From positions 1 to 35,788 of IMG/VR virus record IMGVR_UViG_3300031539_000144: a DNA stretch of 35,788 nucleotides; one strand, 5' to 3'. Each line of letters starts with the position of its first letter. Position 1 is the stretch's first letter. A program made the translations under genes and the position numbers. This DNA comes from a virus. Below, in pieces: positions 3,881 to 33,156 of this stretch. Below the pieces are notes generated by a model. That model ran no database searches. It was not told the DNA's origin and saw only the letters and a list, made by a program, of their open reading frames with translations.

Positions 3881-4155
3881 GCTTGATCCTCATAGTATTT
3901 AACAGCTTTTAGTATTGAGCGTATAAAAGATTTGTATCCCTCATTTATGCCCATAGTAACCTGGTCGTCGCCTCTGGATACAGTCGGCGACCAGATTAAA
4001 ACCTCTTTCCATCGATCTAATAGTTTCTGCCCATGCTCTGAGCTGAACACATTATAAACCAAAGACGAATCCATTAGTGCTTGTTTGATAAACGCATCCT
4101 GTGAAGCCTTGGCATCCTCTTCCATTTTATCTAGGGGGTGTCTATCGTTATTCAA
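3877..4155 (-). CDS. Hypothetical protein between portal and scaffold genes
   Basis: 92-aa ORF that overlaps both neighbours (8 nt and 4 nt), consistent with translational coupling. Confidence 0.65.
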   Translation of the reverse strand: MNNDRHPLDKMEEDAKASQDAFIKQALMDSSLVYNVFSSEHGQKLLDRWKEVLIWSPTVSRGDDQVTMGINEGYKSFIRSILKAVKYYEDQA

Positions 4156-5689
4156 TTGGTGGTCCTCCCTGTGGTTGTTGCTGTGCTTGCTGTTGCTGCA
4201 TGATCATCTTAGTGGCCTGCTCTATCTGCTCAGGTGAACGCGCAAGCTCTTCAGGTAGATTAAGATTACGCTGTAAGAACTGCGGCACAAACTCTAGCGC
4301 AGCTCCAAGCATTTTAACTTCATCCGGTAACTGTTGCATGGCATTTAAGAACACGAACAAGTGATCGATGTTTTCTGTTTGCTCAGCACTTGCCAGCGGC
4401 GATGACATTTTGAGCGTAACCTCACGGCCATCAACCTCAATAGGCGGTATCTTGCCAGCCAATGCGAGGATTTTACTTACACGCGCCACCAATGGAAATA
4501 CAAACTCAGACTGCAATCGACCAAAGTTAGCGCCTCGTTTCTTGAGCATATCCTGCTGACGAATAAGGTTCTCTGTTGCACTGCGCACAGGATCAGACAG
4601 CTCGCCTAGCGGATCAGCAAAGAACACCTTCTTGATGTTGTTTTGCATGTCTTCCATGATGAACTGACCCACGCGCAAATCACCGCCTACTTGCATTGGC
4701 ACCAATGGAGGGTTGTTAGTATCAGCAACAGGCATGATGATGCCTGGCTGTATTCGCGCTGAATGCGGATTAAATATACCATCACTAGCGCCCAACATTG
4801 GAGGCGTCATCGTAAGGGCTGCGTTCTGTAACATGAACTCTTTAACTTTATTCAGCGTGCGGACATCAGCCATAGCCATGTCGGCAGGACCACGACCGTA
4901 TGTTTCGCCAGACACCTTGGACCATCGGTAAACAATAGCGACTGGACTATCGCCATACGATTGGTGGAATATAATCTCATCATCCCACATCACGACCTGG
5001 TGATAAGTTTTATCTTTGAAGTTGAACACCTGTGAGCCATCGATAATATCAACGTCAGACGTGGGGTTTTCTCTTACTGTTCGCTCCTGCTTAGCGTTTA
5101 GCTTAGCTTCAGGAAACTTGAGCATTATCTCTTGGGCTTTGATCGAGTGCTTACGAAATACTGTATGCACCTTGGCCATCGATGTAGGCTCAGGATATAA
5201 CTCAGGCAAAGGAATCGCGGTGAATTTAAGTAATGGCTCGTCGATGTCGTTACCTTGCTCAACAAGAAGGCAGCCCATACTAATAGCCATGTCTTGATGG
5301 GATAGGTTTATTTGGCTAGAAAAGTCCGAGTGTGACAGGTACTTGAAAAACGTACTCGTTGCGGCTTCTAACGCCTCATTAGCTGCATCTTGCTCATCGT
5401 CCTGAATATCACTACCAGCTTCATACTTCATCCACTTGGTGGACTCTGGAGTAATAGATGATGTGATCACAGATACGAACGTTTGCAATGCCTCAACGCC
5501 AGTAGAATCGTAAAGGTGTCGATTCTTACGCTGACCAGGCGAGTGAAAGTTAAACGTCTCACGATTTGGATTAAAGAACTCATACATATCTTGCAGAGTT
5601 GAGCGCCACAATTCACGCCTTTCACTAGCAGACGCGAATCGTTTCTTTATTTCTTTGGCCCCGCCAAGGCCATTAGGCAATGTAATCAT
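4148..5689 (-). CDS. Portal (head-to-tail connector) protein
   Basis: 513 aa with a Gln-rich C-terminus (QQQQAQQQPQGG). It lies downstream of terL and upstream of the scaffold and capsid genes, the canonical order. Confidence 0.8.
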   Translation of the reverse strand: MITLPNGLGGAKEIKKRFASASERRELWRSTLQDMYEFFNPNRETFNFHSPGQRKNRHLYDSTGVEALQTFVSVITSSITPESTKWMKYEAGSDIQDDEQDAANEALEAATSTFFKYLSHSDFSSQINLSHQDMAISMGCLLVEQGNDIDEPLLKFTAIPLPELYPEPTSMAKVHTVFRKHSIKAQEIMLKFPEAKLNAKQERTVRENPTSDVDIIDGSQVFNFKDKTYHQVVMWDDEIIFHQSYGDSPVAIVYRWSKVSGETYGRGPADMAMADVRTLNKVKEFMLQNAALTMTPPMLGASDGIFNPHSARIQPGIIMPVADTNNPPLVPMQVGGDLRVGQFIMEDMQNNIKKVFFADPLGELSDPVRSATENLIRQQDMLKKRGANFGRLQSEFVFPLVARVSKILALAGKIPPIEVDGREVTLKMSSPLASAEQTENIDHLFVFLNAMQQLPDEVKMLGAALEFVPQFLQRNLNLPEELARSPEQIEQATKMIMQQQQAQQQPQGGPPIE

Positions 5690-6006
5690 CGTGATGCAAT
5701 CAACGATTGGCGGCCACCGGTTTTACGTAATAACTTTCTACGCCCTGCAACATCATCAGCCTCAAGCAATGCCATTTGCTCTTTCTGAGACTGAAGCGCT
5801 ATAGACTCCTCCTGTGTTTTCTTTTCGGCGTCGGCCTTGTCTTCGTTTCTAGATAGTGTCGACTCAACAAACAGGCCCTTCTTCTCTGCCTTTTTATTGA
5901 GCTTCTCCACTTCCTTCACACTCTTCTGCGAAAGCGGCTCATAAGGCGTGCTAGCACCTAAAGCCTTTATACCTACATGCCGCACCTTCTCTGTTGCCTT
6001 AGCCAT
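5686..6006 (-). CDS. Hypothetical Lys/Glu-rich protein upstream of the portal gene
   Basis: The track ORF is 5686..6015 (GTG). I prefer ATG 6006 (MAKATEK...) because AGGTGG lies upstream and the ATG overlaps the previous stop. The 3' end overlaps the portal start by 4 nt. Confidence 0.6.
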   Translation of the reverse strand: MAKATEKVRHVGIKALGASTPYEPLSQKSVKEVEKLNKKAEKKGLFVESTLSRNEDKADAEKKTQEESIALQSQKEQMALLEADDVAGRRKLLRKTGGRQSLIASR

Positions 6007-6418
6007 ACCGTCCACCTATTAAGCCGTTATATAATTGTTTTGGGGTTAACGTGAAGAACGACTTAATGCCAAGCAACGCCTTGACTTGTTCAACACACGT
6101 AAAGAAATTAACCGTTCCTCGTGCCTTCATTGGATACTTAACTTTAACTTTTACAACCTTGGCATCCGGTCCAGCTATCATTTGAATTACTGGATACTGA
6201 CATTTTAACATGATTTTCACGTCTGTCATATTAACCCGTGGCTGTATCACTAGCCATTGAAAATCATTAAGGTCTTTAACTGCGTACACATGCCCCATTG
6301 ATCTATCAACAAAGCGGTATATCCAGTGATCGTACTTAGCCGCATCGAACACAATATAGTAATTTATATCGTCATCAACTTCAGGCGGGCGCATTGAATT
6401 CATCACTATAAGGAACAA
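5999..6418 (-). CDS. Hypothetical protein
   Basis: 139-aa track ORF. The true start may be Met 6403 or 6394, because 6381..6418 overlaps the upstream 57-aa ORF. Confidence 0.6.
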   Translation of the reverse strand: MFLIVMNSMRPPEVDDDINYYIVFDAAKYDHWIYRFVDRSMGHVYAVKDLNDFQWLVIQPRVNMTDVKIMLKCQYPVIQMIAGPDAKVVKVKVKYPMKARGTVNFFTCVEQVKALLGIKSFFTLTPKQLYNGLIGGRYG

Positions 6419-6554
6419 ATACCATAGACGGAATCTTGCCGCCTGCCACTACATCTATACGCTGATATATCCAGCCACCAGGAACGCGTATTATTGTATA
6501 AATTCCTTTTATTAGCGGCTCATGCAGCTCTAGATCGTATATTGACTTAGCCAT
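6381..6554 (-). CDS. Small hypothetical protein (57 aa), absent from the ORF track
   Basis: The ATG at 6554 shares one nucleotide with the terL stop (TAATG). Hand translation gives MAKSIYDLELHEPLIKGIYTIIRVPGGWIYQRIDVVAGGKIPSMVFVPYSDEFNAPA. It fills an otherwise empty 135-nt gap. Confidence 0.55.
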   Translation of the reverse strand: MAKSIYDLELHEPLIKGIYTIIRVPGGWIYQRIDVVAGGKIPSMVFVPYSDEFNAPA

Positions 6555-7843
6555 TAAAATACCTCAAAGCTTGAATATGCTTGAACCGGCTGACTCATTG
6601 CCGCCCTATCTGGCAAAGCTAATCTATCTTGCCAACCCATTGCAATATATCTAAATGAGTCGGCCCCATGACTTGACCAATCATGAAGCGGTGTATCACG
6701 GAACATGCCGCGCTTCTCGTCGTAATCATATCGATACTGAGATAAGCATTCTATCCCGTACTTGCATCGTGTCTCATCTATCCACACGCGAGAAAACAGC
6801 TTTCTTGCTGCTTCGATACCATCAGCCACCTTATGCTGCTTGACAACACGAAAGTTAATTCCCATTTCTCGAGCTGTATCACGTCGAGATTTGCCATTCA
6901 TTAGTTCACGCACTTCAATATCATGTGGTGCAAAGTGGTCACCGTATGAAACGCCGTTGTCGCGGGCGAAGTTTTTTAGATATTGAATGTAGTGAGCCAT
7001 GCCTTCACCTGAGTTCTGATAGTAGTTGATCAGGCGAATCTCTTTTCCTATCGCCTGAACAAACCATATCGTCATTGCATCACTAATACCCAAATCCCAA
7101 AACGTATGAACGTCGATCTTTGTTTCTATTGGCACAAACCCTATGCGCTTAGTGGCCATTGCTGCGGCCATCTCTCTTCCGTATACGGCACCCTTGATTG
7201 CAGCAGTCCATGAACATTCATATTCTTGCTCATACTCTTCGGGTGTCATTATCTCTTGAGCGTCGATCAATTCCTCTTCTTTCACTATCTTTGTTTCTGA
7301 GGCTTTGTAGGTCTGAGTGAACCACTTATCGGATGAGTCGGCCTTACTGTATAGCTCGTAGAATGAGTTCTTCCCCTTTGGTGTACCTATGAATATTGCC
7401 CAACCTTCACGATCGGACAATGCAGGCCTCAATACTTCACCAAATAAACTAGATGGCATTTGTGCATACTCATCAAGAACAGCACCATCCAAATATAATC
7501 CACGTAGCGCATCAGGTGAATCACAACCAAATAATTGAATGCGCCCATCGTTAGGGTAATCAATACGTAATTCAGACTCATTGATCTTTATGTCGGGTAT
7601 GCCGCGAGAGTAATGCTTTAGATAATCCCATGCGATAGTTTTAGCTTGCTTATACGTTGGGGCTAGGTAGGCGTAGCGTGGACGCTCTTTAGTAGATGTG
7701 AGGCACTGCTTTAACAGCTCATTGATAGCGAAAACCGTCTTGCCAAAGCGCCTATGACACACAATTACATTCCAACGCATTAGGTCAGAATGTATTTTCT
7801 TTTGCAGCTCACGCGGCTTGTACGGGATTACTATTGTTGCCAT
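6554..7843 (-). CDS. terL: Terminase large subunit
   Basis: 429 aa with a Walker A-like HRRFGKT, a Walker B-like LDGAVLDEYAQM, and a C-terminal nuclease-like half with conserved acidic residues. It is preceded by an overlapping small basic ORF. Confidence 0.85.
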   Translation of the reverse strand: MATIVIPYKPRELQKKIHSDLMRWNVIVCHRRFGKTVFAINELLKQCLTSTKERPRYAYLAPTYKQAKTIAWDYLKHYSRGIPDIKINESELRIDYPNDGRIQLFGCDSPDALRGLYLDGAVLDEYAQMPSSLFGEVLRPALSDREGWAIFIGTPKGKNSFYELYSKADSSDKWFTQTYKASETKIVKEEELIDAQEIMTPEEYEQEYECSWTAAIKGAVYGREMAAAMATKRIGFVPIETKIDVHTFWDLGISDAMTIWFVQAIGKEIRLINYYQNSGEGMAHYIQYLKNFARDNGVSYGDHFAPHDIEVRELMNGKSRRDTAREMGINFRVVKQHKVADGIEAARKLFSRVWIDETRCKYGIECLSQYRYDYDEKRGMFRDTPLHDWSSHGADSFRYIAMGWQDRLALPDRAAMSQPVQAYSSFEVF

Positions 7844-14637: not shown

Positions 14638-14838
14638 TCAGAACGGAACAATGTTTAATTGCGTCGATACTCTACAGAACTCACCATCTTCGTCGTTATA
14701 ATATTTGACTAACTGGAGCGTCCCGTCTTCACCATGCTCAATCGAAAGATTATAATCCTTGCAGAGCTTTTCAATCCTTCCGGCGTGAATCTCAACGTTT
14801 TCCTGCTCAACTTTTGCGTAGCTCATTTCAGTATTCAT
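14638..14838 (-). CDS. Hypothetical protein
   Basis: 66-aa track ORF whose start overlaps the upstream stop by 4 nt. Confidence 0.6.
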   Translation of the reverse strand: MNTEMSYAKVEQENVEIHAGRIEKLCKDYNLSIEHGEDGTLQLVKYYNDEDGEFCRVSTQLNIVPF

Positions 14839-15050
14839 AAATCCTCCGGATAGTCTTCATTAATTGCCGCGTTGTCAGCTCTCTCCGCTGCTTTGCGACG
14901 CCTTTCTGTTAGTGTTGGGTTAACGCCATAGGTTCTAGCCTTCTGTTCGTTACAGCGCGCGCATGTGCCCTTGTCGTTGATCTTGATAGTGCAGCCGCAT
15001 TTGCATGGCAGGCCGAAGTAAGTGCCGTCGTTGGATTTGAAGTGGCCCAT
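14835..15050 (-). CDS. Hypothetical zinc-ribbon-like protein
   Basis: 71 aa with the Cys pairs CKCGC and CARC. Confidence 0.6.
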   Translation of the reverse strand: MGHFKSNDGTYFGLPCKCGCTIKINDKGTCARCNEQKARTYGVNPTLTERRRKAAERADNAAINEDYPEDL

Positions 15051-15053
15051 TTG

Positions 15054-15188
15054 CTAAGCCCCGCTAGAATCAAAGAACTGGCGCAATATCATTCTAACCG
15101 CCATGGTGTAATTTCCATCACAATTAGCATCAGCGTAATCCTGTATTTTTTTATCTAAAACCGAATCGAACTTTATTAGCTTTTTCAT
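15054..15188 (-). CDS. Putative ribbon-helix-helix (Arc/CopG-like) protein, 44 aa, absent from the ORF track
   Basis: AGAGGGAAG lies upstream of the ATG at 15188. Hand translation gives MKKLIKFDSVLDKKIQDYADANCDGNYTMAVRMILRQFFDSSGA, a strand-helix-helix layout. It is the first gene after a promoter. Confidence 0.5.
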   Translation of the reverse strand: MKKLIKFDSVLDKKIQDYADANCDGNYTMAVRMILRQFFDSSGA

Positions 15189-15214
15189 ATACTTCCCTCT
15201 GTTTGCATGAGTTA

Positions 15215-15242
15215 AGTATACACTCAATATATATTATGTAAA
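15215..15242 (-). promoter_or_regulatory. Sigma70-type promoter of a six-gene mini-ORF unit
   Basis: The minus strand reads TTTACA (15242..15237), a 16-nt spacer, then TATACT (15220..15215). The 12-mer ATAAATAGTATT (plus-strand aatactatttat, 15241-15252) abuts the -35 box. Confidence 0.6.
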
Positions 15243-15274
15243 TACTATTTATATATTTATTTTATAGCAGGCAT

Positions 15275-15296
15275 AAAAAAGCCCCCATACGGAGGC
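15275..15296 (-). terminator. Rho-independent terminator after the methyltransferase locus
   Basis: The minus strand reads GCCTCC-GTAT-GGGGGC (15296..15281) followed by TTTTTT. Confidence 0.7.
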
Positions 15297-15414
15297 AGTG
15301 CTACATGGCAGGCTTTGGCAAACCTGTTTTGTGTTTCTTATTGTTCGTCTAGTGTAGCACAATCAATTATTGCGCGGCCTATGATTTCTGGTATTTGAGG
15401 CACGACGGAATTTC

Positions 15415-15930
15415 CTAGTTGCTTACAAGCGTGTGCCATGCCGGGAACCCCATCAACAATGAGCTGAACTCCGGATTGCTTTTCCCAGTCCTGCCAACTG
15501 CCATTACCGACCAATGGGCCAGCATTAATTGATGCCCACCTTTTTTCCGCTTCTCCACCATTTGAGGAGATATTTCGTAGTGCCACTTTAGGTCCATTGC
15601 CATTGGGGTAGGCAATAATCCACACCCTATCTCTGTGATGGGGGGCGCCAATGTAGCTAGCTGATATACAGTGCCATTCTGCATCGTACCCGATCTGGGC
15701 CAAGTCATAGAGAAATCTTGCGAACCATCTCCCTTTGTCTCCACTAAGCAAGCCTGTGACGTTCTCAAAAATTGCGTATCTTGGCAGACACTCGCTAATA
15801 ACCCTAAGCATCTCGGTGTATAAATTTGTTCTTTCGCCATCAACTCCGACTTTAGTTCCTGCCTGGCTAACGTCTTGACAGGGGAAACCTCCGCAAATAA
15901 CGTCAACTGTTCCTCTGTATTGCTTTCCAT
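15415..15930 (-). CDS. 171-codon ORF in the +1 frame of the methyltransferase gene (candidate overprinted gene)
   Basis: ATG 15930 has GAGGA (15941..15937) 6 nt upstream, and the frame is open for 516 nt on the same strand. The product carries the ordered motifs LFAEVSPVKT, LRTSQACL, FSMTWPRSGTMQNG, GLLPTPMAMD and NPEFSSLLMGFPAWHT, which do not look like frameshift noise. Confidence 0.45.
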   Translation of the reverse strand: MESNTEEQLTLFAEVSPVKTLARQELKSELMAKEQIYTPRCLGLLASVCQDTQFLRTSQACLVETKGDGSQDFSMTWPRSGTMQNGTVYQLATLAPPITEIGCGLLPTPMAMDLKWHYEISPQMVEKRKKGGHQLMLAHWSVMAVGRTGKSNPEFSSLLMGFPAWHTLVSN

Positions 15931-16058
15931 CCAGCGTCCTCACATCTTCGTGAATTGGCACGTCAGGCCAGTGTTTTTTTAATACTTTCTGTGCGTGTTT
16001 ATCGAATTCACAAAAAGCTACCGTCTCCATTCCTGCGCGCTCAAGACCTAAACTAAAG

Positions 16059-16095
16059 CCGCCAACTAAATGCCAGAGAACAAATCCAGCACTTT
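16059..16095 (-). repeat. Motif-I coding segment, downstream copy (contains the 5-nt insertion)
   Basis: AAAGTGCTGGATTTGTTCTCTGGCATT-TAGTT-GGCGG matches 16691-16722 at 30 of 32 positions once TAGTT is excluded. Confidence 0.9.
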
Positions 16096-16130
16096 CATGC
16101 GGTTGCTCTCTGACTTTATTTTTCCTCCCG

Positions 16131-16634
16131 TCATAGCTTTTCTCTCATGTGCTTTATGTTTAATATTTTTTTGTCATAAATCCAATGGCAGCTTCGACAC
16201 ATGGCTGCATAGTCATCCAAGTCTTGATAGTTCCCTGTAAGGTTTGCATAGTCGTAATGTTTTGATTCTTCAGTGCCGCATTGTGTGCATTTGGTCGGCT
16301 TTCCATATTTAGCATATAAACGCCTATGAAAAGCTGCGTATCCAGCCTCGCCTCCTTTCCAAGAGCTATTATTTTCCCCAAATTGATCCCGCTTTGCTGC
16401 CACTCTTGCAGGTATTCCGTGTCGCTTCATGGCTTTAAAAATAGACTTTTGAGATACCCCAAGTTTTTCTCCAATTTCAACTTGGCTCATTCCCCCGATA
16501 TACATCTCATTAATCTTATCTATATCTATCGGCGGAGCCTGATAATCTCCCTTGCATTTTAATGAGCAGAATCTCGGATTTTTGCTATAAGACTTAAAAT
16601 CCACGCCGCACTGAGTGCACTTGTATATTGTCAT
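16131..16634 (-). CDS. HNH-family homing endonuclease (Zn ribbon + HTH + HNH-like C-terminus)
   Basis: 167 aa. It has an N-terminal CTQCG...CSLKC, a central HTH (MSQVEIGEKLGVSQKSIFKAMKRHGI) and a C-terminal WKGG...GYAAFHRRL...CTQCG...NL...CRSCH, the layout of phage HNH homing nucleases. AGGA lies 8 nt upstream of the ATG. Confidence 0.65.
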   Translation of the reverse strand: MTIYKCTQCGVDFKSYSKNPRFCSLKCKGDYQAPPIDIDKINEMYIGGMSQVEIGEKLGVSQKSIFKAMKRHGIPARVAAKRDQFGENNSSWKGGEAGYAAFHRRLYAKYGKPTKCTQCGTEESKHYDYANLTGNYQDLDDYAAMCRSCHWIYDKKILNIKHMREKL

Positions 16635-16734
16635 GCATTGATCCTAGCAATAAAAACAATAATATACATCTATTTAGTGGCATTGTAAGCCCGCCAATAC
16701 CAGAGAACAAATCCAACACTTTTAAAGCGCTCAT
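16594..16734 (-). CDS. 46-codon ORF: methyltransferase motif I (MSALKVLDLFSGIGG) fused to out-of-frame cassette sequence
   Basis: ATG 16734 overlaps the stop of the 103-aa gene (ATGA), the position expected for the original methyltransferase start. After GIGG the frame runs through the cassette promoter and the 5' end of the HNH ORF to a TAA at 16594. Confidence 0.4.
   Translation of the reverse strand: MSALKVLDLFSGIGGLTMPLNRCILLFLLLGSMHDNIQVHSVRRGF
16661..16688 (-). promoter_or_regulatory. Candidate promoter of the HNH endonuclease gene
   Basis: The minus strand reads TTACAA (16688..16683), a 16-nt spacer, then TATATT (16666..16661), immediately after the upstream motif-I copy. Confidence 0.45.
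16691..16722 (-). repeat. Motif-I coding segment, upstream copy
   Basis: AAAGTGTTGGATTTGTTCTCTGGTATTGGCGG. See 16059-16095. Confidence 0.9.
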
Positions 16735-17042
16735 AACTCCGCCGCTATATTTGCTTTAATCCATTGAAACACTTCTTTGCGGGTGCCCAATCCTGAATAC
16801 GCCCCGTCGTATTTGATGTAGTAATATTTATCAGCTCGCACTTGGTCGACTTTCATAACTACAAAACCCGCCGGCGCTTTCTGCGATCCAAACTTGGCAA
16901 TAGTGTCAGGATTTCTGACGAGAAGCTTATCAAGCAATACCTGTTTTTCGTCTACTGCGCCCCAGGTAACCAACTTCAACTTAGGCTTTTTCATTTGCTC
17001 GCGCTCAAGCTCGCGATGGATGTCGCTGAATTCGTCTCTCAT
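16731..17042 (-). CDS. Hypothetical protein
   Basis: 103-aa track ORF coupled to both neighbours. Confidence 0.65.
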   Translation of the reverse strand: MRDEFSDIHRELEREQMKKPKLKLVTWGAVDEKQVLLDKLLVRNPDTIAKFGSQKAPAGFVVMKVDQVRADKYYYIKYDGAYSGLGTRKEVFQWIKANIAAEL

Positions 17043-17254
17043 GTGTTATCCACCAGCGGCTCATCGACACGCAGCGCAATATCTATGCCATTAAATATAT
17101 GCCAGACCTGATAATCTACTTGTGACAAATTGTTTCTTAGTTGTAGCTCAATATCACGAATCGATTTCAGCAAGCTTTCAGTTTCGCTTGCATCAAGATC
17201 ATATGAAAATAACTGAGCCTTTTTCTTTCTGTGTAAATTCTTTAGATCATCCAC
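17039..17254 (-). CDS. Hypothetical protein
   Basis: 71-aa track ORF with a GTG start. Confidence 0.55.
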   Translation of the reverse strand: MDDLKNLHRKKKAQLFSYDLDASETESLLKSIRDIELQLRNNLSQVDYQVWHIFNGIDIALRVDEPLVDNT

Positions 17255-17316
17255 CTGTCACCACCATTTCTGCTAAAATTATTAGAATGCACGGAATTAT
17301 TCCGAGCATGTAAAAT

Positions 17317-21990: not shown

Positions 21991-22854
21991 GTGAGTAATA
22001 TCGTAGAATTCGTTCAAAATCAAGCAGCTCTATTTAATGAGTCGCTATCTGATGAGCGCATAACGTGGGCTAAAGAATCTCAGTTTGCCATTCAAGTTTT
22101 GCAAGAAAATAAGTTTTTGCGTGAGACAGCTGAAAAGAATCAATTAAGCCTACAAAATGCGATCATAAACGTTTCGGCTATAGGTATTAGTCTAAACCCT
22201 GCTAACAAGCATGCATATCTGGTGCCAAGAGGCGGCAAAGTATGTCTTGACATTAGCTACATGGGATTGCTGCACCTTGCCATGGCAACAGGCTCTATCA
22301 TGTTTGCTGAATGCAATATCGTTTACGCGAATGATAATTTTAAGCGTGTTGGCGTTGGCATGCCCCCAGTTTTTGATGTTCAAGAATTCACAGACAGAGG
22401 TGCTATCGTCGGTGCGTACTGCACAGCAAAAACATGCGATGGTGACTATTTAACCGAAGTGATGAGTCTTGCAGAAATCAAAGAAACCGAAGCAACAAGC
22501 AAGGCGAATAACGGCCCATGGAAAACCCACTGGAAAGAAATGGCACGTAAAACAGTTGTTAAGCGCGCATCAAAGTACTGGCCAAAGGTTGATCGTCTTG
22601 ACCAGGCTATTCATCATTTAAATACTGATGCCGGTGAAGGCCTTACAGTTTTATCGCAAGAAAAAGAAGTCCCTAGCGTTATTGATAACGATCAAAAAAT
22701 GGAATTAATAGCAGCATGTAAAGATCATGGCGTGAGCATCGATGCGCTATTGAAAGCTGCCAGAGTATCAAGCATCGACGAAATAAATGCAGGACGATTT
22801 CAAGGCGCTCTAGGCTGGGTTAAAAAACAGGTGAAAGAAAATGATAATAGTTAA
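21991..22854 (+). CDS. recT: RecT-family single-strand annealing protein
   Basis: 287 aa. AISVSAIGISLNPANKHAYLVPRGGKVCLDISYMGLLHLA and WKTHWKEMARKTVVKR fit the RecT pattern. It is followed by a nuclease and SSB. Confidence 0.8.
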   Translation: MSNIVEFVQNQAALFNESLSDERITWAKESQFAIQVLQENKFLRETAEKNQLSLQNAIINVSAIGISLNPANKHAYLVPRGGKVCLDISYMGLLHLAMATGSIMFAECNIVYANDNFKRVGVGMPPVFDVQEFTDRGAIVGAYCTAKTCDGDYLTEVMSLAEIKETEATSKANNGPWKTHWKEMARKTVVKRASKYWPKVDRLDQAIHHLNTDAGEGLTVLSQEKEVPSVIDNDQKMELIAACKDHGVSIDALLKAARVSSIDEINAGRFQGALGWVKKQVKENDNS

Positions 22855-23482
22855 CTGCGAGCAAGGGACAAAAGAATGGCTCGAGGCGCGGGCAGGATGC
22901 ATTACCGCGTCAATGTTTAAAGATGTGCGCAACACTCTAAAATCAGGAAAGAACAAAGGCGGGTACAGCAAGAAGGCCGACGATTACGCTTTTCATCTTG
23001 CGTGCGAAAGAATAGCAGGCGAGCTTCTAGACGATGATCAGTTTGTAACGTGGCAGATGAAGCGCGGCAACGATCTAGAGCCTGATGCAAGACTAGCGCA
23101 TGAAACATCAATGGGAATACTTGTAGAGCAGTGCGGCTTTGTGATGACCGACGATGGCAAGTTCGGAGCTTCGCTTGATGGCCTTATCGATAAAACAGGC
23201 AGTAGCGAATACAAATGTTTTACAGCTCCAAGCTCGATAAAGCCGATTCTGCTAGACAAAGATTTAAGCTCTATTACTGACCAAATGCAAGGCGGAATGT
23301 GGATAACCGGAAAGGCTTATTGCGACTTCGTTTTGTATTGTCCGCAACTAAAAAAGATCGGGCACGAATTAACAATCATCACAGTGTATCGCGACAACGA
23401 ATACATTGAGGGACTAGAAAGCGACTTGCTTAAATTTGATAAGCACGTTGAAAATTACGTTGAATTACTGGGGAACAAATAA
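22841..23482 (+). CDS. YqaJ / lambda-exonuclease-type recombination nuclease (PD-(D/E)XK)
   Basis: 213 aa. The N-terminus QGTKEWLEARAGCITASMFKDV is the YqaJ signature, and DGLI...SEYKC fits the D...E-x-K core. It overlaps the recT end. Confidence 0.8.
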   Translation: MIIVNCEQGTKEWLEARAGCITASMFKDVRNTLKSGKNKGGYSKKADDYAFHLACERIAGELLDDDQFVTWQMKRGNDLEPDARLAHETSMGILVEQCGFVMTDDGKFGASLDGLIDKTGSSEYKCFTAPSSIKPILLDKDLSSITDQMQGGMWITGKAYCDFVLYCPQLKKIGHELTIITVYRDNEYIEGLESDLLKFDKHVENYVELLGNK

Positions 23483-25979: not shown

Positions 25980-28010
25980 CTAGTCAGATCCGCCCACGCG
26001 CGCACTCCAGTCAAATATAAAACCACTTGCGCCTGGATTCTGTCTACTCGATACCGTAAATGTCGTTGCTCCAATGCCAGTTATGTAAATGTTACCTGGG
26101 TCATTGGAAGAGTTGGAAGTCTGGACAATATTTATGCTTGAAGAATCAGGGGTAAGGGAAAGCCCGTGTGTAACAGCTATGGTCGTCGTACCGCTTAATA
26201 TAGTCGCCGACCCCTTTTTATTAGCAACGAAACCATTATTGCTTTTGTATCTGTATTTATCGCGAGACGATCCCGTAATAAAATTAGTAACATTTTGGGT
26301 AGCCGTGTTTTGCTCAATAACTCCGCCAAATGAGCTAGACGACACAATAAACGTCGTTACCTGAGCAGCCTGATTACCTTTGATTGATATTGGTGATGCT
26401 GCCGCTGTTCTTATTGCTGTGGCTACAGAGCCAACACGCCCAACGAACGTATTACCTTCAACTCTAGGACTAGTAACACCCGCTGCTATATCGACATAAT
26501 AAAGTAGCGTGCTAATTGCTGGGGTATCAGACTCAAAATAGTTATTTAAAATTTGAGGACACCCGATATCATCTATTGTCGCATCTAAAAATATAGAGTA
26601 ATCGCCACGCTGCTGCTGAAATACTGAATTAATAACGCGTGGATTCGTTCCCGATCTTATAATTATATCTGCCGTCTCAGATAGTAGCGAGAATACCCGC
26701 TCAACATGATTATCATGCGCACCAGAGCCGCCATCACCCGCTAAATCAATACTGATGCCGCATCCCTGTATCCAAGCTCGTCCAATTGAATTAGAAAAGT
26801 TAGTCGATAATATGCCCGTACTAGCGTCATTTATGCGTATATGACTAACTGACCACCCCCAGTCCCTCAACCATATCCCACCAATCCCGTTTGAAACGGC
26901 GCCACAATTAATAATGCCACCTTTTATAAACTCATCATCACCAAACGTGTTAACCGTTTCCCAAACATAATCGCCGGATGTCATGTTTGCTATGTCTGCC
27001 GTAATTATACAGCCGTTGTTGGCTAGTACTGAGCAGCGCTTGAGAGTGTTCTTACCCTTCAGATACGTGCCGTCTGGTATTATTATTGTTCCCGCTCGAT
27101 TGGTTGTGGTTTCCTCCGCTAGCCAGTCTGCACACGCTTGAACAATCGTAGTGCACGGCGTTACTCCTTTTCTATCTGCCCCGCATTGCAGTATGTTTAA
27201 CTCCCCAGGCTGATGCTGAAGAACTGCAACATTACCGTTAGCTAAAGTATGATGAATGATGTTATCTACAGGTCGAGAAAACATAACAGCAAATTGTGCG
27301 GCGGTTACAATCGTATATAAAGCGCCGCCAACGGGACCAGCCGTAGTTGCCGCCCACCCGCCGTGGTAGCTTGTAGTGTAAGATGTTCGCCCTGAAACCA
27401 AAGCCGCCGCCACCATCGACGCAACAGAGTCAAACTTTTCGCTATTCAAATACGCACTAACGTTAGTCGTAGTGGCGTCTATTGTGAGCGATACCACGCT
27501 TGCGTCTGTTGGGTTTCCTGATGCAGCTATATCGATATTCTCGAGGCCACTTAAATCTGATTTCCACCGAACATAGTTTTGCGCAACCGGGGCAGGAAGA
27601 GTTAAAGACGAGACGCCTTGCTGACATTCGGAAAACGTTAATGATCTTTGCGCTAGATCAATGGCCTGCTTTGTGATCGATATACTTCTATCCAAATCAT
27701 CGTTAATCGTATCCGGCCTAAAATCTCCGTTGTTTTGGTAGTCGGTAGTGCGGTTGGCCGGTATAGCTGAAACAATCGTTACGAGGTCACCCGAGCCTGT
27801 AGGCGTGGATAACGTGATTGATCCGCCACCCTCAACACCAACACCGGCAACTGTATAAGCTGTGGTTAAGTCGGCAGCAGAACAAGCTTGACCGGCGGGA
27901 GTTACGTACACATTAAGATCGGTACTAGCGTAAATCTTGTAGGTATAATTAAACACCGTCTGGCTTGCACTTGCTGTGTATTCGTTGCGTACATCACTTG
28001 AAGTTATCAT
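25980..28010 (-). CDS. Tailspike / tail fibre with a probable right-handed beta-helix (depolymerase-like) body
   Basis: 676 aa. The ~120-aa N-terminus (YTASASQTVFNYTYKIY...DLVTIVSAIP...DFRPDTINDDLDRSISITKQAIDLAQ) matches the anchor domain seen on many podovirus fibres. The central Gly/Asn/Ile/Ser-rich repeats resemble pectate-lyase-type coils. It is the last gene of the virion module. Confidence 0.7.
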   Translation of the reverse strand: MITSSDVRNEYTASASQTVFNYTYKIYASTDLNVYVTPAGQACSAADLTTAYTVAGVGVEGGGSITLSTPTGSGDLVTIVSAIPANRTTDYQNNGDFRPDTINDDLDRSISITKQAIDLAQRSLTFSECQQGVSSLTLPAPVAQNYVRWKSDLSGLENIDIAASGNPTDASVVSLTIDATTTNVSAYLNSEKFDSVASMVAAALVSGRTSYTTSYHGGWAATTAGPVGGALYTIVTAAQFAVMFSRPVDNIIHHTLANGNVAVLQHQPGELNILQCGADRKGVTPCTTIVQACADWLAEETTTNRAGTIIIPDGTYLKGKNTLKRCSVLANNGCIITADIANMTSGDYVWETVNTFGDDEFIKGGIINCGAVSNGIGGIWLRDWGWSVSHIRINDASTGILSTNFSNSIGRAWIQGCGISIDLAGDGGSGAHDNHVERVFSLLSETADIIIRSGTNPRVINSVFQQQRGDYSIFLDATIDDIGCPQILNNYFESDTPAISTLLYYVDIAAGVTSPRVEGNTFVGRVGSVATAIRTAAASPISIKGNQAAQVTTFIVSSSSFGGVIEQNTATQNVTNFITGSSRDKYRYKSNNGFVANKKGSATILSGTTTIAVTHGLSLTPDSSSINIVQTSNSSNDPGNIYITGIGATTFTVSSRQNPGASGFIFDWSARVGGSD

Positions 28011-31000
28011 TCTGGCAAGCCCTCTCCGGCCTTGGTTACTAGTTCGTTTAATAGTCGGCGTATGTAAAATAGGTTTTGAGCAGGTAGTAATCTGATCAAT
28101 CTAGCAATATCGCTTTGCGAGAACTCGCCGGATGTTGCGGCGCCTAGCGTTTGAATCATATCCTCGACAGTTCCAAGCGATGGACCCAAAAGGGCGCCAG
28201 TTATGTTTCTGCTAGCGTATCGCGACATAGGAGGGTTGCCCATCATTGGATTCACGCCCATGCTACCGCGAGAAACCTTTTCAATAATATTGTTAACATC
28301 CCACATATAACCAAAGGCGCCAGACTTATCTAATGACTCAACTATAATTTTGCTAGGGTCACTAGATATTTCTTTGCCTGCCACATATTGTTTTGCACCA
28401 TAAGCAACACCACCAAGGGCAACCGATATAAGGAAACCATTAAGCGCTTGGAGGTCTGCGTTCTGAAGATCAGCAACAGCTATCTTGTGATGAGCGACAG
28501 CAGCAAACGTCTTAAACTGGAAAATCATTTTCCCAGTTTCGCCACTTGTCCATAACGGCTTTTCTCCAACGCCAGGCGTTAATATAGTCCGATCAACATC
28601 CTTCAACACTGATGACCTAAATGTTTCTAGCGCTCCTCTGTCATCCCATTTGTGGCCGTTGGATAAATTTAAGCTACCACCATCGCCATGCTTTTTAAAT
28701 TGTGCGGCTATGCGTGTAGCCATGTCTTTATCTATGCCAGCGGATGCCATGCGGCGCATATTGTTCTTGCTGATTGTCCCGTCTGCAAACTTAACAGCTT
28801 GAGTCAAAAGCCGGTCTTGAGTAACAACACCGGAGAACTGTTTTAATGCAGTATTCCACTGTGACATTAACGTGATTTTGCCAAAACCATCAGACATTGA
28901 TCTAAGGCCGCGCTCAAATTTAGTGCCTCTCGCATAGATGTCGCCAATCTCAGCCATTGAAGCCATACGACTATTAAGAACCATATCTAAGCCTACCGCA
29001 GCTTTTCGTGCCTCGTCTTTTGACATCTTAAATACTTGAGGCGAAAACGCTAACGCTTTTAATGCCCTACCTACGGGAGCCAATCCGTTCATAGCGATTG
29101 GCCTAGCTAAATCTGGTATTGCTGATATCGTCATACCGCCAAGCATCCGCAGAAAATTAACGTCGCGAATAACACGGCCAGACCTAACGAAAAAACTATT
29201 CGGGTCCTGAGGTGTTCTATATGTGCCGCGCAACCTATCCCAAATGGCTTGCAGGTCTCTCGCGTCCGCAGCTTGTCTCTTATTTAGATTCTCCCTTTGC
29301 TTCTCCGTTGTAGCTGCCTTGCGCAAATTCTCATAGCCAGCATTGATACGCTTAACAACTTCAGTACCGGTAACCTCGCCATAAACTTTGGCTAGCTCAA
29401 CGTCTGGCGCCATGGTCATTTTGTATTGACGTGCGACCATATCAATATCTGATTCTAGAAAGTCTTCGATCAACCTATCAGGGATAGTGAAAGACCGCTC
29501 TTTCATTGGTCCACGCTCAGACAGCTTTACGTCATAAGGGAGTCGACCAGAGGCAACGCCTGTTACATTCTCGCGAACAGAAACAACAATCTCATCAATC
29601 TCGAGATCTGTTATCTTGGCTTCGCCTCTTAGTGAATCGCTTATATTTTTACCGCTAGCCTCGGCGTCATCAAATTTCCGCAAAGCCGATGCTCTAATTC
29701 CGTTTAGCCATCCGCGTGTAATGTTATCGAATTCATCACTTTTAGCTATTATCTTTTTGGTTTGATATACGCGCGTAAGATAGCTTGTGGCAGTGGAGAC
29801 GGATACATCCTTTGGTAATAATCCGGCGTCAATTGCTGCATCCTTTAGCGGGTCAAATAGCTTTCCCCTAAACACCTTGGCAGTTTCTGCAACTTCTGGT
29901 ATTTCGTGACTATCTCCTCGGCGCATTGCCTTGCCAACTTCGATCCTAAAATCTTCAGGTGTTAGCTTTCCTTGTCGATTCCTAAGAACGTAATCATTAA
30001 TAGTGGTTTTTGTTGATTTAGCTAAGCCGCTAGTCATTCCCGTTGGGGCTGAACCTGTTCTATATTTTAGATAACCGCTATCTATTGACTGAAGCCCTTC
30101 AGCTAGACCAGCATCCCAAAGCTTAATTCTAGTCTCAATTGATCCACCCTCTAGCGTAGTAGATATGCCCTCGACATTACCCTTGGTCACCAATGATGAC
30201 TCCATCAGCTCAGAAGCGATACGCCGCGTTTCTATTTCTGGGCTGGTCATTGTTCTTACTTGGGGAGATACTCCAATTTTCTCAAGCCCTAAAGCGCCTT
30301 TAAGATCAAGCTCATCCATTGTTAGCTGGTTAACTTGAGCTGCACCCATTGATTTTTCAGAAATAGGAGCGTCGTTGAATACCTGTTCAGCTTTTAAAGA
30401 AAGATTATCAACCTCTTTTGCTGACAGCTTAGCAAATCCCGCGCCAAGTAAGCCAGACAACAAAGCGGCACCGCCAATATTTAAAGCGGATTCCGTCATT
30501 GTTCTGGTTTCTTGCGTCATTTGTTTGGCTGCTTCTGCTGGCAACTCAGACAAAGCACCAAGCGCAGCGGTAGTCCTAAAAGCCTGGCCTGCTGTGGCGC
30601 CAAGTCTAACTTCGCCAAGACCGGCTGCCATTGTTACTAGAGTAATAGGGTCAGTTATACCGGCTGCCATCTGCGCTATAAATCCAGTGGCACCAGAAGC
30701 GGCTAAAGTCTTGCGGTCGTCAAGCTCTTGATCAAGCTCCATTTTTATGCGAGCGGTATGTGCGGGACTCTTGGAATCAATAAAGCTTTCTGCAAATGTC
30801 TCATAGCCTTGTATGTCGTCACCATCAAATGGATCATAGCCATCCACCGGCTCCGGCAATTCCATCAAGCCAAAGCCTTTAGCGGCCGCAGATACAAAGC
30901 TATTCTCTTGCCTAAAGCCAGCCATGAAGGTTTCACCAACGCTAGGCGCCTCAACCTCCACAAACTTGGAAACATCCGCTTCAGGTATGCTTTGGAAAGC

Positions 31001-31030
31001 TCCAATTTCTCTATCTTCAATAAGCGGCAT
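28007..31030 (-). CDS. Large internal virion / ejection protein (T7 gp16 position)
   Basis: 1007 aa, assigned by size and by gene order after the nozzle and two other internal-protein genes. It overlaps both neighbours. No lytic transglycosylase motif was recognised. Confidence 0.6.
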   Translation of the reverse strand: MPLIEDREIGAFQSIPEADVSKFVEVEAPSVGETFMAGFRQENSFVSAAAKGFGLMELPEPVDGYDPFDGDDIQGYETFAESFIDSKSPAHTARIKMELDQELDDRKTLAASGATGFIAQMAAGITDPITLVTMAAGLGEVRLGATAGQAFRTTAALGALSELPAEAAKQMTQETRTMTESALNIGGAALLSGLLGAGFAKLSAKEVDNLSLKAEQVFNDAPISEKSMGAAQVNQLTMDELDLKGALGLEKIGVSPQVRTMTSPEIETRRIASELMESSLVTKGNVEGISTTLEGGSIETRIKLWDAGLAEGLQSIDSGYLKYRTGSAPTGMTSGLAKSTKTTINDYVLRNRQGKLTPEDFRIEVGKAMRRGDSHEIPEVAETAKVFRGKLFDPLKDAAIDAGLLPKDVSVSTATSYLTRVYQTKKIIAKSDEFDNITRGWLNGIRASALRKFDDAEASGKNISDSLRGEAKITDLEIDEIVVSVRENVTGVASGRLPYDVKLSERGPMKERSFTIPDRLIEDFLESDIDMVARQYKMTMAPDVELAKVYGEVTGTEVVKRINAGYENLRKAATTEKQRENLNKRQAADARDLQAIWDRLRGTYRTPQDPNSFFVRSGRVIRDVNFLRMLGGMTISAIPDLARPIAMNGLAPVGRALKALAFSPQVFKMSKDEARKAAVGLDMVLNSRMASMAEIGDIYARGTKFERGLRSMSDGFGKITLMSQWNTALKQFSGVVTQDRLLTQAVKFADGTISKNNMRRMASAGIDKDMATRIAAQFKKHGDGGSLNLSNGHKWDDRGALETFRSSVLKDVDRTILTPGVGEKPLWTSGETGKMIFQFKTFAAVAHHKIAVADLQNADLQALNGFLISVALGGVAYGAKQYVAGKEISSDPSKIIVESLDKSGAFGYMWDVNNIIEKVSRGSMGVNPMMGNPPMSRYASRNITGALLGPSLGTVEDMIQTLGAATSGEFSQSDIARLIRLLPAQNLFYIRRLLNELVTKAGEGLPE

Positions 31031-33156
31031 TACTCGACCTCAAAGGCATTTCGTAATTCATCAGCCTCTAGTTTATCAATTTTCTTAGTTGCTAGCATGT
31101 TGTTTATCGTGCGAGACACTAAAGGTTTTGATTCTGGCGACGCTAAGAACTCGGCTTTTTCTGCCGATGTCATGCCGATCATTTCATTACTTCGTGACAT
31201 ACCTTGATCAACTTGGAACGCTAATACATTCGCACGGCGAGCCATTTTAATAGCACGCTTTTCTTTGGCGCTAATGATGGCATTTTCAGGCGCCGATATG
31301 GCTTCGGAGTATTCTTGTGTTTTTGTAAAATCGGGCTGCCAGCGCAATACATTGCCAGTTTCAGGATTGCGGGCAACATCAACGAAGCCTTGAGCATTCG
31401 TTACCATCACTGGGTATGAAGGTTTATTGCTGCGGCCAGTATTGAAGTCTGATGATATTTCAGCGCCAACTATACCCGATGCCATCATATCTTCTGCGAA
31501 CTGCTCACCCATCCATTTATCATCAATGCCATCGATAGAATAGAAAGCCTCCGGTGCTGACTTCATAAAGCGATCTTTACCATCCACACCAGTAACAGCC
31601 CAAGTCTTTCTAAGGCTGCCGAATGCTAGCTTCTTGGCTTGATCTGGATTGCCATCCGTTAGCGTCATAAAGTTTGAGAATGCAACGTTAAAATCAGCTT
31701 GCATGGTAACTGGTATTTCTGGCTCTTCGTCGAATGGGTTTCTTGGACTGGGGTCAAACACGCGATCGACTTCGGTTTTAAGAAATGGCGCCAAGTTCTT
31801 GCTTTCGGCTTGCGCCTGAATCTTAACAGCTTCTTTTTGCTGCGCCGTCATTCCGTAAGTATTTTTTCGCGCTATCTCAATGGCTTGTTCTGGATCAACA
31901 CCGGAACGTGTAGCGTCTGCAACTTGCAAGCTAAACGCTCTAGACTCGTCAGGTAGATCACGTAAAGCGTTAGCTGCTGTAGGAAGCTCTTGAACGCGAG
32001 ATACAACATCAACCATCATCATAACTTGATCAGGATTGCCGGAGCGTGAAGTGGCGTTTACGGTTGATATTACGCGCTCAGGAACAAGGCCAGTGTTTTT
32101 AATGAAGCCGACAATGTTATCTACTTGCTGTTGTGCCGGCAAACCTTCCCATGCTGCTGACTCTTGATCGTAGAAAGCATTTACGTCTTTGCGGTCTTGG
32201 CTGTTTTTTGCGGGATCGGCGGGAATATCTGGATTAGAAAACATGCGCCCACGCTCAACACTTAGGCCATGATCAATAGCTTTCAGGTTGGCTTTCTCTT
32301 CTTTTTGCTGTCTTGCCAGTTTTCTATTTAAGTCGGTTTGAGTGTTTGCGACAAAGCTATCCCACTCCTCAGGCGCAAAACCTTTAGGGCGCTTCATGTC
32401 GTCTAGCTTATCAAATGCGGCACCTGCGCCAGCGCTATCGAATGTGCGGAACAAGTCACCCTTGAACCCCTCTTCGATTAATCCTTTTTCAATATCTCGT
32501 TTTTGCTCTGCACCTTGGGCGCTATTAATGAAGCCAGACTCAACGCGTGCATCAATAGTAGCGAATGCAGCTAACGCGCTCTCGGCTGCCGTAGTCGCAT
32601 CACCATCACGAGCAAATCCCAAGGCGTCAGTAGTCGCCGCTTCAATCTGGCGCGATGTCTGCATGTCGCTTTCTTTATGCTGTGCAGCTATCTCGTTGTT
32701 TTGCACTTTAATTCGATTGGCATTAATCAATGAATCCATTGAATCCGCAACAACATTTCTAGCACTTGGATCAACGTTGGTTAGCGTGGCCTTTCGGTAG
32801 GATTCAATATTGTCATTAAATGCCGAAATACTCTGCGGATTCTCTGCTGCAATTCGGGCTATTTCAAGACGGTTATCAGCATCAATAGATGATACATAGG
32901 ATGCCATCAAACCCTTATTGTAGGCAGACGAAGCAACGCCACCAAAGAACCGCTCTTCTTTAAACTCTGGATCTTCACCTTTGATGAATGCAGTTTGGCC
33001 AGAAGCAAAAGCACGCTGCGCCGTCTTCTGTGCGTGAACCTGAGTTTGTTGATTTGCAAATGCATCAAGCTTATTAGTTAAAGATGACGAATCATAGTTA
33101 ATGGTTCCCGCTTGCTGGATGTTTACAGTCTCGTTAAATCTAGGCACCTGTTCCAC
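31030..33156 (-). CDS. Internal virion / ejection protein (T7 gp15 position)
   Basis: 708 aa, assigned by position and size. It has a GTG start inside the end of the 139-aa gene, so the exact start is uncertain. Confidence 0.6.
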   Translation of the reverse strand: MEQVPRFNETVNIQQAGTINYDSSSLTNKLDAFANQQTQVHAQKTAQRAFASGQTAFIKGEDPEFKEERFFGGVASSAYNKGLMASYVSSIDADNRLEIARIAAENPQSISAFNDNIESYRKATLTNVDPSARNVVADSMDSLINANRIKVQNNEIAAQHKESDMQTSRQIEAATTDALGFARDGDATTAAESALAAFATIDARVESGFINSAQGAEQKRDIEKGLIEEGFKGDLFRTFDSAGAGAAFDKLDDMKRPKGFAPEEWDSFVANTQTDLNRKLARQQKEEKANLKAIDHGLSVERGRMFSNPDIPADPAKNSQDRKDVNAFYDQESAAWEGLPAQQQVDNIVGFIKNTGLVPERVISTVNATSRSGNPDQVMMMVDVVSRVQELPTAANALRDLPDESRAFSLQVADATRSGVDPEQAIEIARKNTYGMTAQQKEAVKIQAQAESKNLAPFLKTEVDRVFDPSPRNPFDEEPEIPVTMQADFNVAFSNFMTLTDGNPDQAKKLAFGSLRKTWAVTGVDGKDRFMKSAPEAFYSIDGIDDKWMGEQFAEDMMASGIVGAEISSDFNTGRSNKPSYPVMVTNAQGFVDVARNPETGNVLRWQPDFTKTQEYSEAISAPENAIISAKEKRAIKMARRANVLAFQVDQGMSRSNEMIGMTSAEKAEFLASPESKPLVSRTINNMLATKKIDKLEADELRNAFEVE

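Follow-up and report, generated by a model that had tools for sequence, protein, structure and literature searches.

The window analysed here, the whole 35,788-nt stretch of viral DNA in IMG/VR record IMGVR_UViG_3300031539_000144 (positions 1 to 35,788), contains a C5-cytosine DNA methyltransferase (MTase) gene that is interrupted in S-adenosylmethionine (AdoMet) motif I by the gene of a homing-endonuclease-type protein and by the five nucleotides TAGTT. Comparison with related sequences makes it very probable that this is a mobile homing-endonuclease cassette situated in AdoMet motif I and that the short insert is an inherited part of it. It is plausible, and to judge from the sequences slightly to be preferred, that recoding of the insert gives a full-length MTase. 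Somewhat better than even prospects are also assigned to the complete proposal, in which the cassette resembles T4 MobA/gene 60, the insert provides immunity, and the MTase is synthesized by a +5 hop. Our judgement is evenly balanced on the wider proposal that homing-endonuclease cassettes in phage MTase genes contain a large family of natural short recoding sites, driven by a hairpin, made immune by the insert, and allowing the wild-type enzyme to be produced.

A mobile cassette with a short insert

All coordinates of the locus refer to the minus strand of the window. The TAGTT insert (16064..16068) is located between the Ile codon (ATT) and the Gly-Gly codons (GGC GGC) of AdoMet motif I, as identified by comparison with cassette-free relatives. 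Motif I (FSGI/GG) is thereby split, and motifs I, IV (PCQ), and X of the C5 MTase (PF00145) are not in one frame. As proposed in an earlier note on this DNA, TAGTT is a true insertion: the cassette-free relatives L001 and L006 read ...GGCATTGGTGGCTTTAGTTTAGGT, and an uninterrupted, in-frame LDLF[SA]GIGGF[ST]LGLE is present in 78 of 79 cassette-free relatives. The cassette-free gene L077 has an extra G in a seven-G run at motif I (~3960-4030, ATCGGGGGGGTTTTCC), which places the body out of frame and could represent a homopolymer error or a slippage-prone site. The duplicated motif-I segments of the window, at 16722-16691 and 16095-16059, match at 30 of 32 positions once TAGTT is taken out, with two positions that differ, which agrees with the earlier count.

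Nuclease homologues and their flanks were collected from metagenomes, IMG/VR, exact-protein look-ups, and GenBank phages. The nuclease family contains 236 homologues at E-values up to 1e-5, and about 45 cassette lineages share the order MTase 5' remnant, nuclease, new start with VLDLFSGI, short insert, and MTase body. The motif-I insert is out of frame or contains a stop in 38 of the 45 cassette lineages and is in frame with sense codons in three, and four lineages have no insert. Group A consists of the window-like cassettes, in which the insert follows GGC-ATT and precedes GGN-GGN. Inserts of 4-7 nt that are related to TAGTT and placed at the same position are found in 27 lineages. The 5-nt forms in group A are TAGTT (the window, L087, L161, and L165), TAGTC, TAGCC, TGACC, TGACT, CTGTT, CCGTT, ATATC, AGGTT, AGATT, and CTATT, to which TGAAC is added, after TAT, in the Gordonia phages Gudmit and Lton. 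Forms of 6 nt have either an in-frame TAG (TAGGTT, TAGCTC, and TAGCTT) or sense codons (CAAGTC for QV, CTAGTC and CTAGTT for LV), and there is one form of 7 nt in L159 (GGC-TGAA-GGC) and one of 4 nt in L126 (CAAC). Group B has a shorter nuclease, and 14 of its lineages contain one extra C after a Phe codon (GGGGGC-TTT-C followed by TCN, AGY, ACC, or GAA), with another four that have no insert.

The five nucleotides had been interpreted in the earlier note as the scar of an imprecise homing event. This is contradicted by L087, L161, and L165, in which the same TAGTT follows GGCATT, so that it is present in four MTase backgrounds. The direct repeat TTTAGTT-GGCGGC-TTTAGTT at 16070-16051, which had been taken as the signature of a templated insertion, is not shared, since the sequence 3' of the insert is TTCAGTC in L087, TTCTCTC in L161, and TTTTCTC in L165. 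The sequence TTTAGTTTAGG is native coding sequence of the MTase clade of the window, and on this comparison the repeat is a coincidence of the window's native MTase codons. As far as the lineages compared here go, a short insert at this spot is inherited as a constant component of a widespread cassette.

The mobility that had been proposed for the nuclease gene was borne out by the finding of identical nuclease genes in diverged backgrounds. The nucleases of L109 and L110 are 100% identical, whereas their MTase bodies are 81% identical and their upstream DNA is unrelated. Likewise, identical nucleases are combined with bodies of 97.9% identity and upstream DNA of 83% identity in L156 and L157, and with bodies of 95.4% identity in L154 and L155. 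These pairs argue for active homing. The cassette is polymorphic in its presence and absence, with a cassette-free state and a spread into diverged MTase genes and flanks. The upstream remnants vary between genomes almost solely at synonymous sites, as expected if each remnant was derived from a different recipient gene, and remnants that are equivalent to that of the window but use other synonymous codons occur in L087, L154, L156, L158, and L100. In group A, the nucleotide sequence GGATTTGTTCTCTGGCATT directly 5' of the insert hardly varies, whereas the 3' side varies synonymously, which places the right-hand boundary of the cassette at the insert. A DNA pattern search of IMG/VR for TAGTT alleles without a nuclease gave none with a strict pattern and cassettes with other nucleases with a looser one, and a scan of a genome collection gave two weak loci only.

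The insert and the RNA hairpin that precedes it, described below, also stand as a module behind different nucleases in L165, L167, and L168. The locus in L165 (8784-10237) encodes a canonical HNH protein, and its MTase is truncated after ~45 codons and followed by another HNH/AP2 open reading frame (ORF). The L167 nuclease (76-639) has the Zn-ribbon and helix-turn-helix (HTH) of the window type fused to a canonical HNH domain, and L168 (8575-9162, minus strand) encodes a Cys-rich, HNH-like protein. A second nuclease cassette, with an HTH and HNH-like ORF, is found at motif IV of the same MTase in L126 (~290-800), where the new start reads AAGGAGGUGAUG... and the site GGA UUC CCA UAA CCA UGC CAG contains a 6-nt insert in GGFP/CQ with a stop between matched Pro codons. 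The nuclease gene is frameshifted after MPRGAKPKTYDPEMVQSVSQLYAAGKT in L107 (~1985-2435) and also in L108 and L135, and that of L117 (309-581) lacks ~85 N-terminal residues, the upstream remnant also being lost.

The same cassette design is present in two cultured phages, Gudmit (L173, MN813685.1, locus 2031-2110) and Lton (L175, OP297548.1, locus 1893-1960), which read ATG TCC GAA ... TCG GGC TAT TGA AC GGC GGN, at ~34535-34620 of the Gudmit record and ~35512-35600 of the Lton record. In both cases the methylase is annotated in GenBank from a GTG or ATG that lies further upstream in the frame of the body, so that motif I reads PVFGLLNGG and not SLFSGYGG. In these two phages the hairpin is weak (z -0.4 to -1.4).

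The nuclease and the organisation of the locus

The anatomy described in the earlier note (remnant, nuclease ORF, second start, TAGTT, and shifted body) was confirmed, and only the coordinate of one ATG was wrong. The stop of a 103-aa upstream phage gene, identified in the ORF listing at 16731..17042, overlaps the original MTase start (ATGA, ATG 16734). This ATG opens MSALKVLDLFSGIGG, the AdoMet motif I of a C5-MTase, and the ORF has 46 aa in all (16734..16594), with MTase sequence that ends at ~16687. The 15 codons of the 5' remnant of the recipient MTase (MSALKVLDLFSGIGGL, 16687..16734) correspond to positions 1-20 of PF00145, and the remnant is probably also the left homology arm for homing. 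A promoter-like site for the nuclease gene, CTTACA-17-TATATT (16661..16689), was recognised by consensus match only (9/12). Its -35 element straddles the junction between remnant and cassette (16684-16692) and is composed of the MTase codons GGN-TTG or CTT and the ACA of the cassette, and the homologous junctions in L154 and L100 read the consensus TTGACA. An AGGA stands 5' of the nuclease start, ATG 16634.

The free-standing gene that follows (16131..16634) encodes a protein of 167 aa. The claim that a homing-endonuclease-type gene is located in the 5' end of a C5-MTase gene held up, since the protein matches phrog_8446, "HNH endonuclease", at an E-value of 1e-19, and its top fold matches among the viral models in BFVD are "Homing endonuclease" and "HNH endonuclease" (E-values 3.5e-6 to 1e-4). 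The AlphaFold (AF2) model, with a predicted local distance difference test (pLDDT) score of 82, contains a Zn-ribbon, an HTH, and a C-terminal Cys4 beta-beta-alpha nuclease domain, and residues C116, C119, C146, C149, H150, and N159 are invariant. Pfam recognises the HTH only, with no HNH match, and the PDB also matches the HTH only, with neither a sequence match nor a significant Foldseek match for the nuclease part. The HNH label on the predicted protein is thus well supported but not airtight. The ratio of nonsynonymous to synonymous substitution rates (dN/dS) is 0.06-0.2 with saturated dS, and by this measure the nuclease is under purifying selection.

Downstream of the nuclease gene is ORF1 (16066..16134), a putative cassette-borne replacement of the MTase 5' end, for which an in-frame start and VLDLFSGI are found in every cassette. 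It starts either at ATG 16134, which is coupled to the nuclease stop (CTATGA) and gives 22 codons (MTGGKIKSESNRMKVLDLFSGI, then the stop), or at an in-frame ATG. The overlap with the nuclease stop had been missed in the earlier note. The in-frame ATG gives MKVLDLFSGI, with the codons ...CTG GAT TTG TTC TCT GGC ATT, of which ATT is at 16071-16069, followed by TAG at 16068-16066. This second start and its peptide had been correctly noted, but the position given for it, 16095, is the first A of AAAGTG, and the true ATG is at 16098-16096. The insert sets UAG in the A site and GUU beside GGC. The MTase body of 241 codons and a stop (15338..16063; PF00145, E-value 1e-47; phrog_363, E-value 1e-69) reads GGFSLGLERAGMETVAF... 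from GGC 16063, continues from GGFSLGLERAG... via motif IV (PCQ) to GNSVVPQ, and ends at TAA 15340-15338. It is intact and in the -1/+2 frame relative to ORF1. A terminator-like hairpin with a T-run follows the MTase at 15275..15296.

An empty-site relative was sought, and a deletion of the whole module of remnant, nuclease, and MTase, of roughly 1.4 kb, was found instead in L164, a close relative of the window phage (IMGVR_UViG_3300031565_000941, 2501-2900). The homologue of the 103-aa protein in L164 is 90% identical and ends with ...KANMAATLDEQ and a stop, being fused to the last six MTase codons, and it is followed by the same conserved terminator.

The window phage is podovirus-like and encodes a large terminase, a head-tail adaptor, an internal virion protein with an endolysin domain, and tail proteins, with phage gene regions noted at 21991-23482 (+), 25980-35610 (-), and 4148-7843 (-). 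It also encodes a RecT-like annealase and an exonuclease, and thus has a suitable repair machinery for homing. No close nucleotide relative was found among GenBank phages, and all matches to the MTase in the protein search had less than 60% identity.

Decoding across the insert

The 5-nt insert breaks standard decoding, as had been stated before, because translation stops at the UAG and the body is in another frame. A recoded enzyme, which had been offered as an alternative, is favoured by the comparison of cassettes but still unproven. In this proposal, the cassette would bring a promoter-like site, the nuclease gene, a replacement MTase 5' end, and the 5-nt insert directly after the Ile codon of ORF1. 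The replacement would consist of a start codon, a short N-terminal extension, and VLDLFSGI, and the first 15 codons of the recipient would stay upstream as a remnant. The nuclease would recognise uninterrupted motif-I DNA and cut only an uninterrupted ...TTCTCTGGYATTGGCGGCTTT... site. By analogy with the gene-60 gap, which protects against MobA, TAGTT is likely to be a self-immunity element, which would split the regenerated target and shield the cassette DNA from its own enzyme.

A ribosome on ORF1 would pause with AUU in the P site and a slow UAG in the A site, whereupon the peptidyl-tRNA-Ile (anticodon GAU) would leave AUU and re-pair 5 nt downstream on GUU (16066-16064). The next codon read would be GGC 16063, which would restore the wild-type ...DLFSGIGGFSLG... 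with VLDLFSGIGGFSLGLER as the junction peptide of the +5 hop. The 3' arm of the hairpin would be inside the ribosome and zip only as the mRNA exits, so that refolding would favour forward movement. The efficiency of the hop may be low. Across the family, recoding would comprise 5-7-nt hops over a stop codon and +1 UUU-C shifts in the sister cassettes.

The hairpin (16067..16118), formed by a 5' arm, UAAAGUCAGAGAGCAA, and a 3' arm, UUGUUCUCUGGCAUUUA, was identified by its folding z-score and by covariation. It has a free energy of -23.7 kcal/mol and a z-score of -6.1 in the window, and none of 200 shuffled sequences folds as well. Its 5' arm starts at or near the start of ORF1 (A-AUG-CC...GAGA), its 3' arm consists of the MTase codons ...UUC-UCN-GGC-AUU, and its 3' end falls on the AUU take-off codon, with the insert directly after it. 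Among 18 cassettes, 91.7% of the cells are paired compared to 37-46% with a slid partner, and there are six pairs with double changes (0/500 shuffles). For example, L159 uses other synonymous codons (TTC-AGC-GGA-ATC) and the 5' arm is fully compensated. Of the 15 nt that precede the insert, 12 or more are paired in 15 of 18 group A cassettes and in 10 of 13 group B cassettes with a +1 insert, whereas this is seen in none of the four insertion-free cassettes and in 6 of 79 cassette-free genes. The start codon has been shifted into the apical part of the hairpin in the sub-clade of the window and the hairpin is kept, which makes sequestration of the start codon unlikely as its sole role.

The main rival explanation is that the cassette is purely selfish and the gene dead, which we consider a serious possibility, although less probable than its contrary. 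The insert would then inactivate the MTase on arrival, without recoding, the body would be a recent pseudogene that has not yet decayed, and ORF1 would merely encode a peptide of 10 or 22 residues. Standard decoding indeed ends at UAG 16068-16066, and the ORF listing gives no ATG, GTG, or TTG in the body frame upstream of Met 16030. Such a dead gene would not be expected to have its lesions clustered at a single 5-7-nt spot in ~38 lineages. The "decaying dcm" of the earlier note is likewise disfavoured, since the downstream MTase ORFs are intact, with no second lesion, in 27 of 28 lineages whose contig includes the end of the gene (16 of 17 in group A and 11 of 11 in group B). The bodies are intact even beside decayed nucleases, as shown by the +1-shifted MTase ORFs of 280 and 281 codons in L107/L108/L135 and L117, next to degenerate nuclease genes. 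Furthermore, the cassettes keep the Shine-Dalgarno sequence, the start codon, and perfect VLDLFSGI codons despite saturated synonymous sites in the nuclease. Nor is a gene inactivated on arrival easily reconciled with the covarying hairpin, which extends up to the insert and is missing from insertion-free cassettes.

Stops and cognate triplets flank the insert far above chance, which also speaks against a dead gene. Of the 24 group A lineages that need non-standard decoding, 15 have a stop directly after the take-off codon, as do 10 of 20 distinct insert sequences, compared to 3/64 by chance. The triplet before GGN is AUU in L162 and L163, AUC in L091 and L158, and GUY in eight insert types, including that of the window. 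The take-off and landing codons match perfectly in L162, L163, L091, L158, L159 (GGC UGA A GGC), and L126 (CCA UAA CCA), and the AUU to GUU of the window is a near-cognate pair with a G.U at the first position. Group B always has UUU-C, and tRNA-Phe can slip +1 from there onto the better-paired UUC. Two other routes around the stop were rejected. An internal start at Met 16030 is not a general solution, since Met is absent near the shift from many of the related bodies (ERTGGFETVAF, ERSGGFKTVAF), and reassignment of TAG or a suppressor tRNA is at odds with the ordinary ORFs that end with TAG in the window, in which no tRNA genes were found.

Several observations weigh against recoding. Non-standard decoding is needed in 38 of 45 cassette lineages compared to 1 of 79 cassette-free genes, but the cassette lineages are related and the counts do not represent independent events. 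The GUU of the window is near-cognate, not cognate, for tRNA-Ile, and some inserts end in triplets that re-pair poorly (ACC/ACU, GCC, CUY, or AAC), so that the take-off and landing match is poor in the insert types TGACC, TAGCC, and TAGCTY, as would not be surprising if the gene were dead. The invasions often look recent, with identical nucleases and remnants that have the perfect MTase peptide, and recency alone could explain the intact ORFs. The dN/dS of 0.15-0.4 for the MTase body may predate the invasion, and neither dN/dS nor co-divergence gives a verdict on selection after the invasion, as dS is saturated between lineages and the close pairs represent recent homing. The deletion in L164 suggests that the MTase module is dispensable in this phage lineage, and the MTase of L165 is truncated, both of which fit an inactivated gene. 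The 5-nt forms also resemble 1-nt deletions of the 6-nt forms (ATT-TAGTT and ATT-CTAGTT), as a dead gene might acquire. The hairpin could instead couple the initiation of ORF1 to translation of the nuclease. A case for AGG, AGA, AUA, and CUA as "hungry" codons was dropped, as they are not rare in the codon use of the phage contigs themselves. Finally, hops of 5-7 nt have been shown only in synthetic constructs and with low efficiency (review PMC5009743).

An improbable variant is that recoding occurs by another shift, either +2 (...SGI-V-GGF...) or -1 (...SGI-LV-GGF...), which would leave one or two extra residues in the motif-I loop. The in-frame cassettes of L097, L104, and L081 do encode I-LV-GG or I-QV-GG, a -1 reading of the window gives the identical I-L-V-GG, and the residues encoded just before GGN are V, I, T, A, or L. 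However, CAU (-1) and UUA (+2) are poor sites for re-pairing of tRNA-Ile, motif I is free of extra residues in all 79 cassette-free relatives, and the matched codons (GGC UGA A GGC, CCA UAA CCA, and AUU..AUU) indicate hopping.

We give very little credence to an intervening sequence at the RNA level, such as a group I intron with a nuclease ORF, which would be spliced out and join the MSALKVLDLFSGIGG exon to the body. The nuclease ORF is placed between duplicated, exon-like sequences, and phage group I introns often carry HNH genes. However, a search of positions 14800-17300 against Rfam gave only noise, with no match at E-values up to 10, the non-coding DNA amounts to only ~130 nt, and the nuclease gene is provided with a promoter-like site of its own. 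Splicing would also leave the conserved second start, the hairpin, and the insert unexplained, and the cassettes of group B and Gordonia share the layout with a very short upstream remnant or none. An assembly or sequencing artefact, be it a collapsed repeat or an indel error, has only the general risk of metagenome assembly in its favour and is hardly credible, since five other assemblies (ENA ERZ27256834 and ERZ27256828, Logan SRR8554643 and SRR8554511, and JGI 3300031566) are identical to the window across both junctions, which makes six independent assemblies in all, and since the same insert occurs in three unrelated backgrounds (L086 has four differences from the window, all at the contig end).

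Comparison with known systems

A search of full-text literature on homing endonucleases with methyltransferase frameshifts, intronless homing, and short hops did not find the element described. If the MTase is recoded as proposed, the cassettes would offer dozens of minimal and diverse natural test cases, with gaps of 1-7 nt and a single upstream hairpin, that bear on how peptidyl-tRNA leaves and re-pairs and on whether refolding of mRNA at the ribosome exit drives forward movement. A selfish nuclease would thereby enter the most conserved codons of a gene with neither an intron nor an intein, by means of a replacement start and a protective insert that the ribosome ignores. Such genes are called as truncated or mis-started (the window gene at Met 16030, gene 58 in Gudmit, and gene 60 in Lton), so the methylation capacity of phages would be mis-predicted. 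If the insert is not recoded, the cassette would still be a widespread, actively homing element that knocks out the anti-restriction methylases of phages.

The cassette resembles the elements of intronless homing (T4 Seg and Mob proteins, and the MobE-split nrdA of Aeh1) in that the nuclease gene is located beside or inside its target, with break repair and co-conversion of the flanks. It differs from them in that the known elements sit between genes or split a gene into two working halves, whereas here the 5' end is duplicated and an insert is added. The group B relatives, but not the window, are similar to prfB-type +1 frameshifting, with GGGGGC-UUU-C, a slip of the P-site tRNA-Phe from UUU to UUC, and a G-rich, Shine-Dalgarno-like run just upstream. 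Sites with UUU and a pyrimidine are reportedly shift-prone, an observation ascribed to Schwartz & Curran 1997. Unlike prfB, group B lacks a stop or rare codon in the A site, and the spacing of the Shine-Dalgarno-like run is 1 nt rather than 3.

In the synthetic stop-hops and tRNA hopping described for E. coli (Weiss et al. 1987, as cited in PMC5009743), peptidyl-tRNA likewise skips a stop and lands on a matching codon a few nucleotides downstream, a description that CCA UAA CCA in L126 and GGC UGA A GGC in L159 fit exactly. Those hops are synthetic and of low efficiency, whereas the sites described here are natural and conserved and have an upstream hairpin. According to the review PMC5009743, no natural in-frame stop-hop is known.

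The closest likeness is to T4 MobA and the gene 39-gene 60 arrangement. In the T4 MobA element, the take-off and landing codons match, a stop or hungry codon and a 5' stem-loop are present, and self-cleavage is blocked by the gap. To our knowledge, T4 gene 60, together with its MobA-linked homologues, was for decades the one natural bacterial system that represented efficient translational bypassing. The target here is motif I of a C5-MTase instead of the Toprim domain of a topoisomerase, and the gap is 5 nt (1-7 nt in the family) instead of 50 nt. There is no take-off stem-loop or internal Shine-Dalgarno sequence within the gap, the landing codon of the window is near-cognate, and the host gene has its first 15 codons duplicated rather than being split into two functional proteins. 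Experiments have proven bypassing for gene 60, whereas for the cassette it is only inferred. In both systems, a conserved phage gene contains a free-standing HNH-type nuclease, its downstream part receives a new start and an N-terminal extension from the cassette, and a non-coding insert, which in T4 blocks self-cleavage, is located in the coding sequence beside the target. They also share a stop directly after the take-off codon, a stem-loop just 5' of take-off, insertions that are mostly recent and repeated, and a module that occurs with other nucleases. The cassette would thus work like MobA/gene 60 without being filed as a member, the likeness being one of layout, as the target gene and gap length differ and sequence homology to either was neither sought nor noticed. 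If the proposal is true, the cassettes would stand beside T4 gene 60 as a second system of its kind, independent and much simpler, with Gudmit and Lton as cultured examples.

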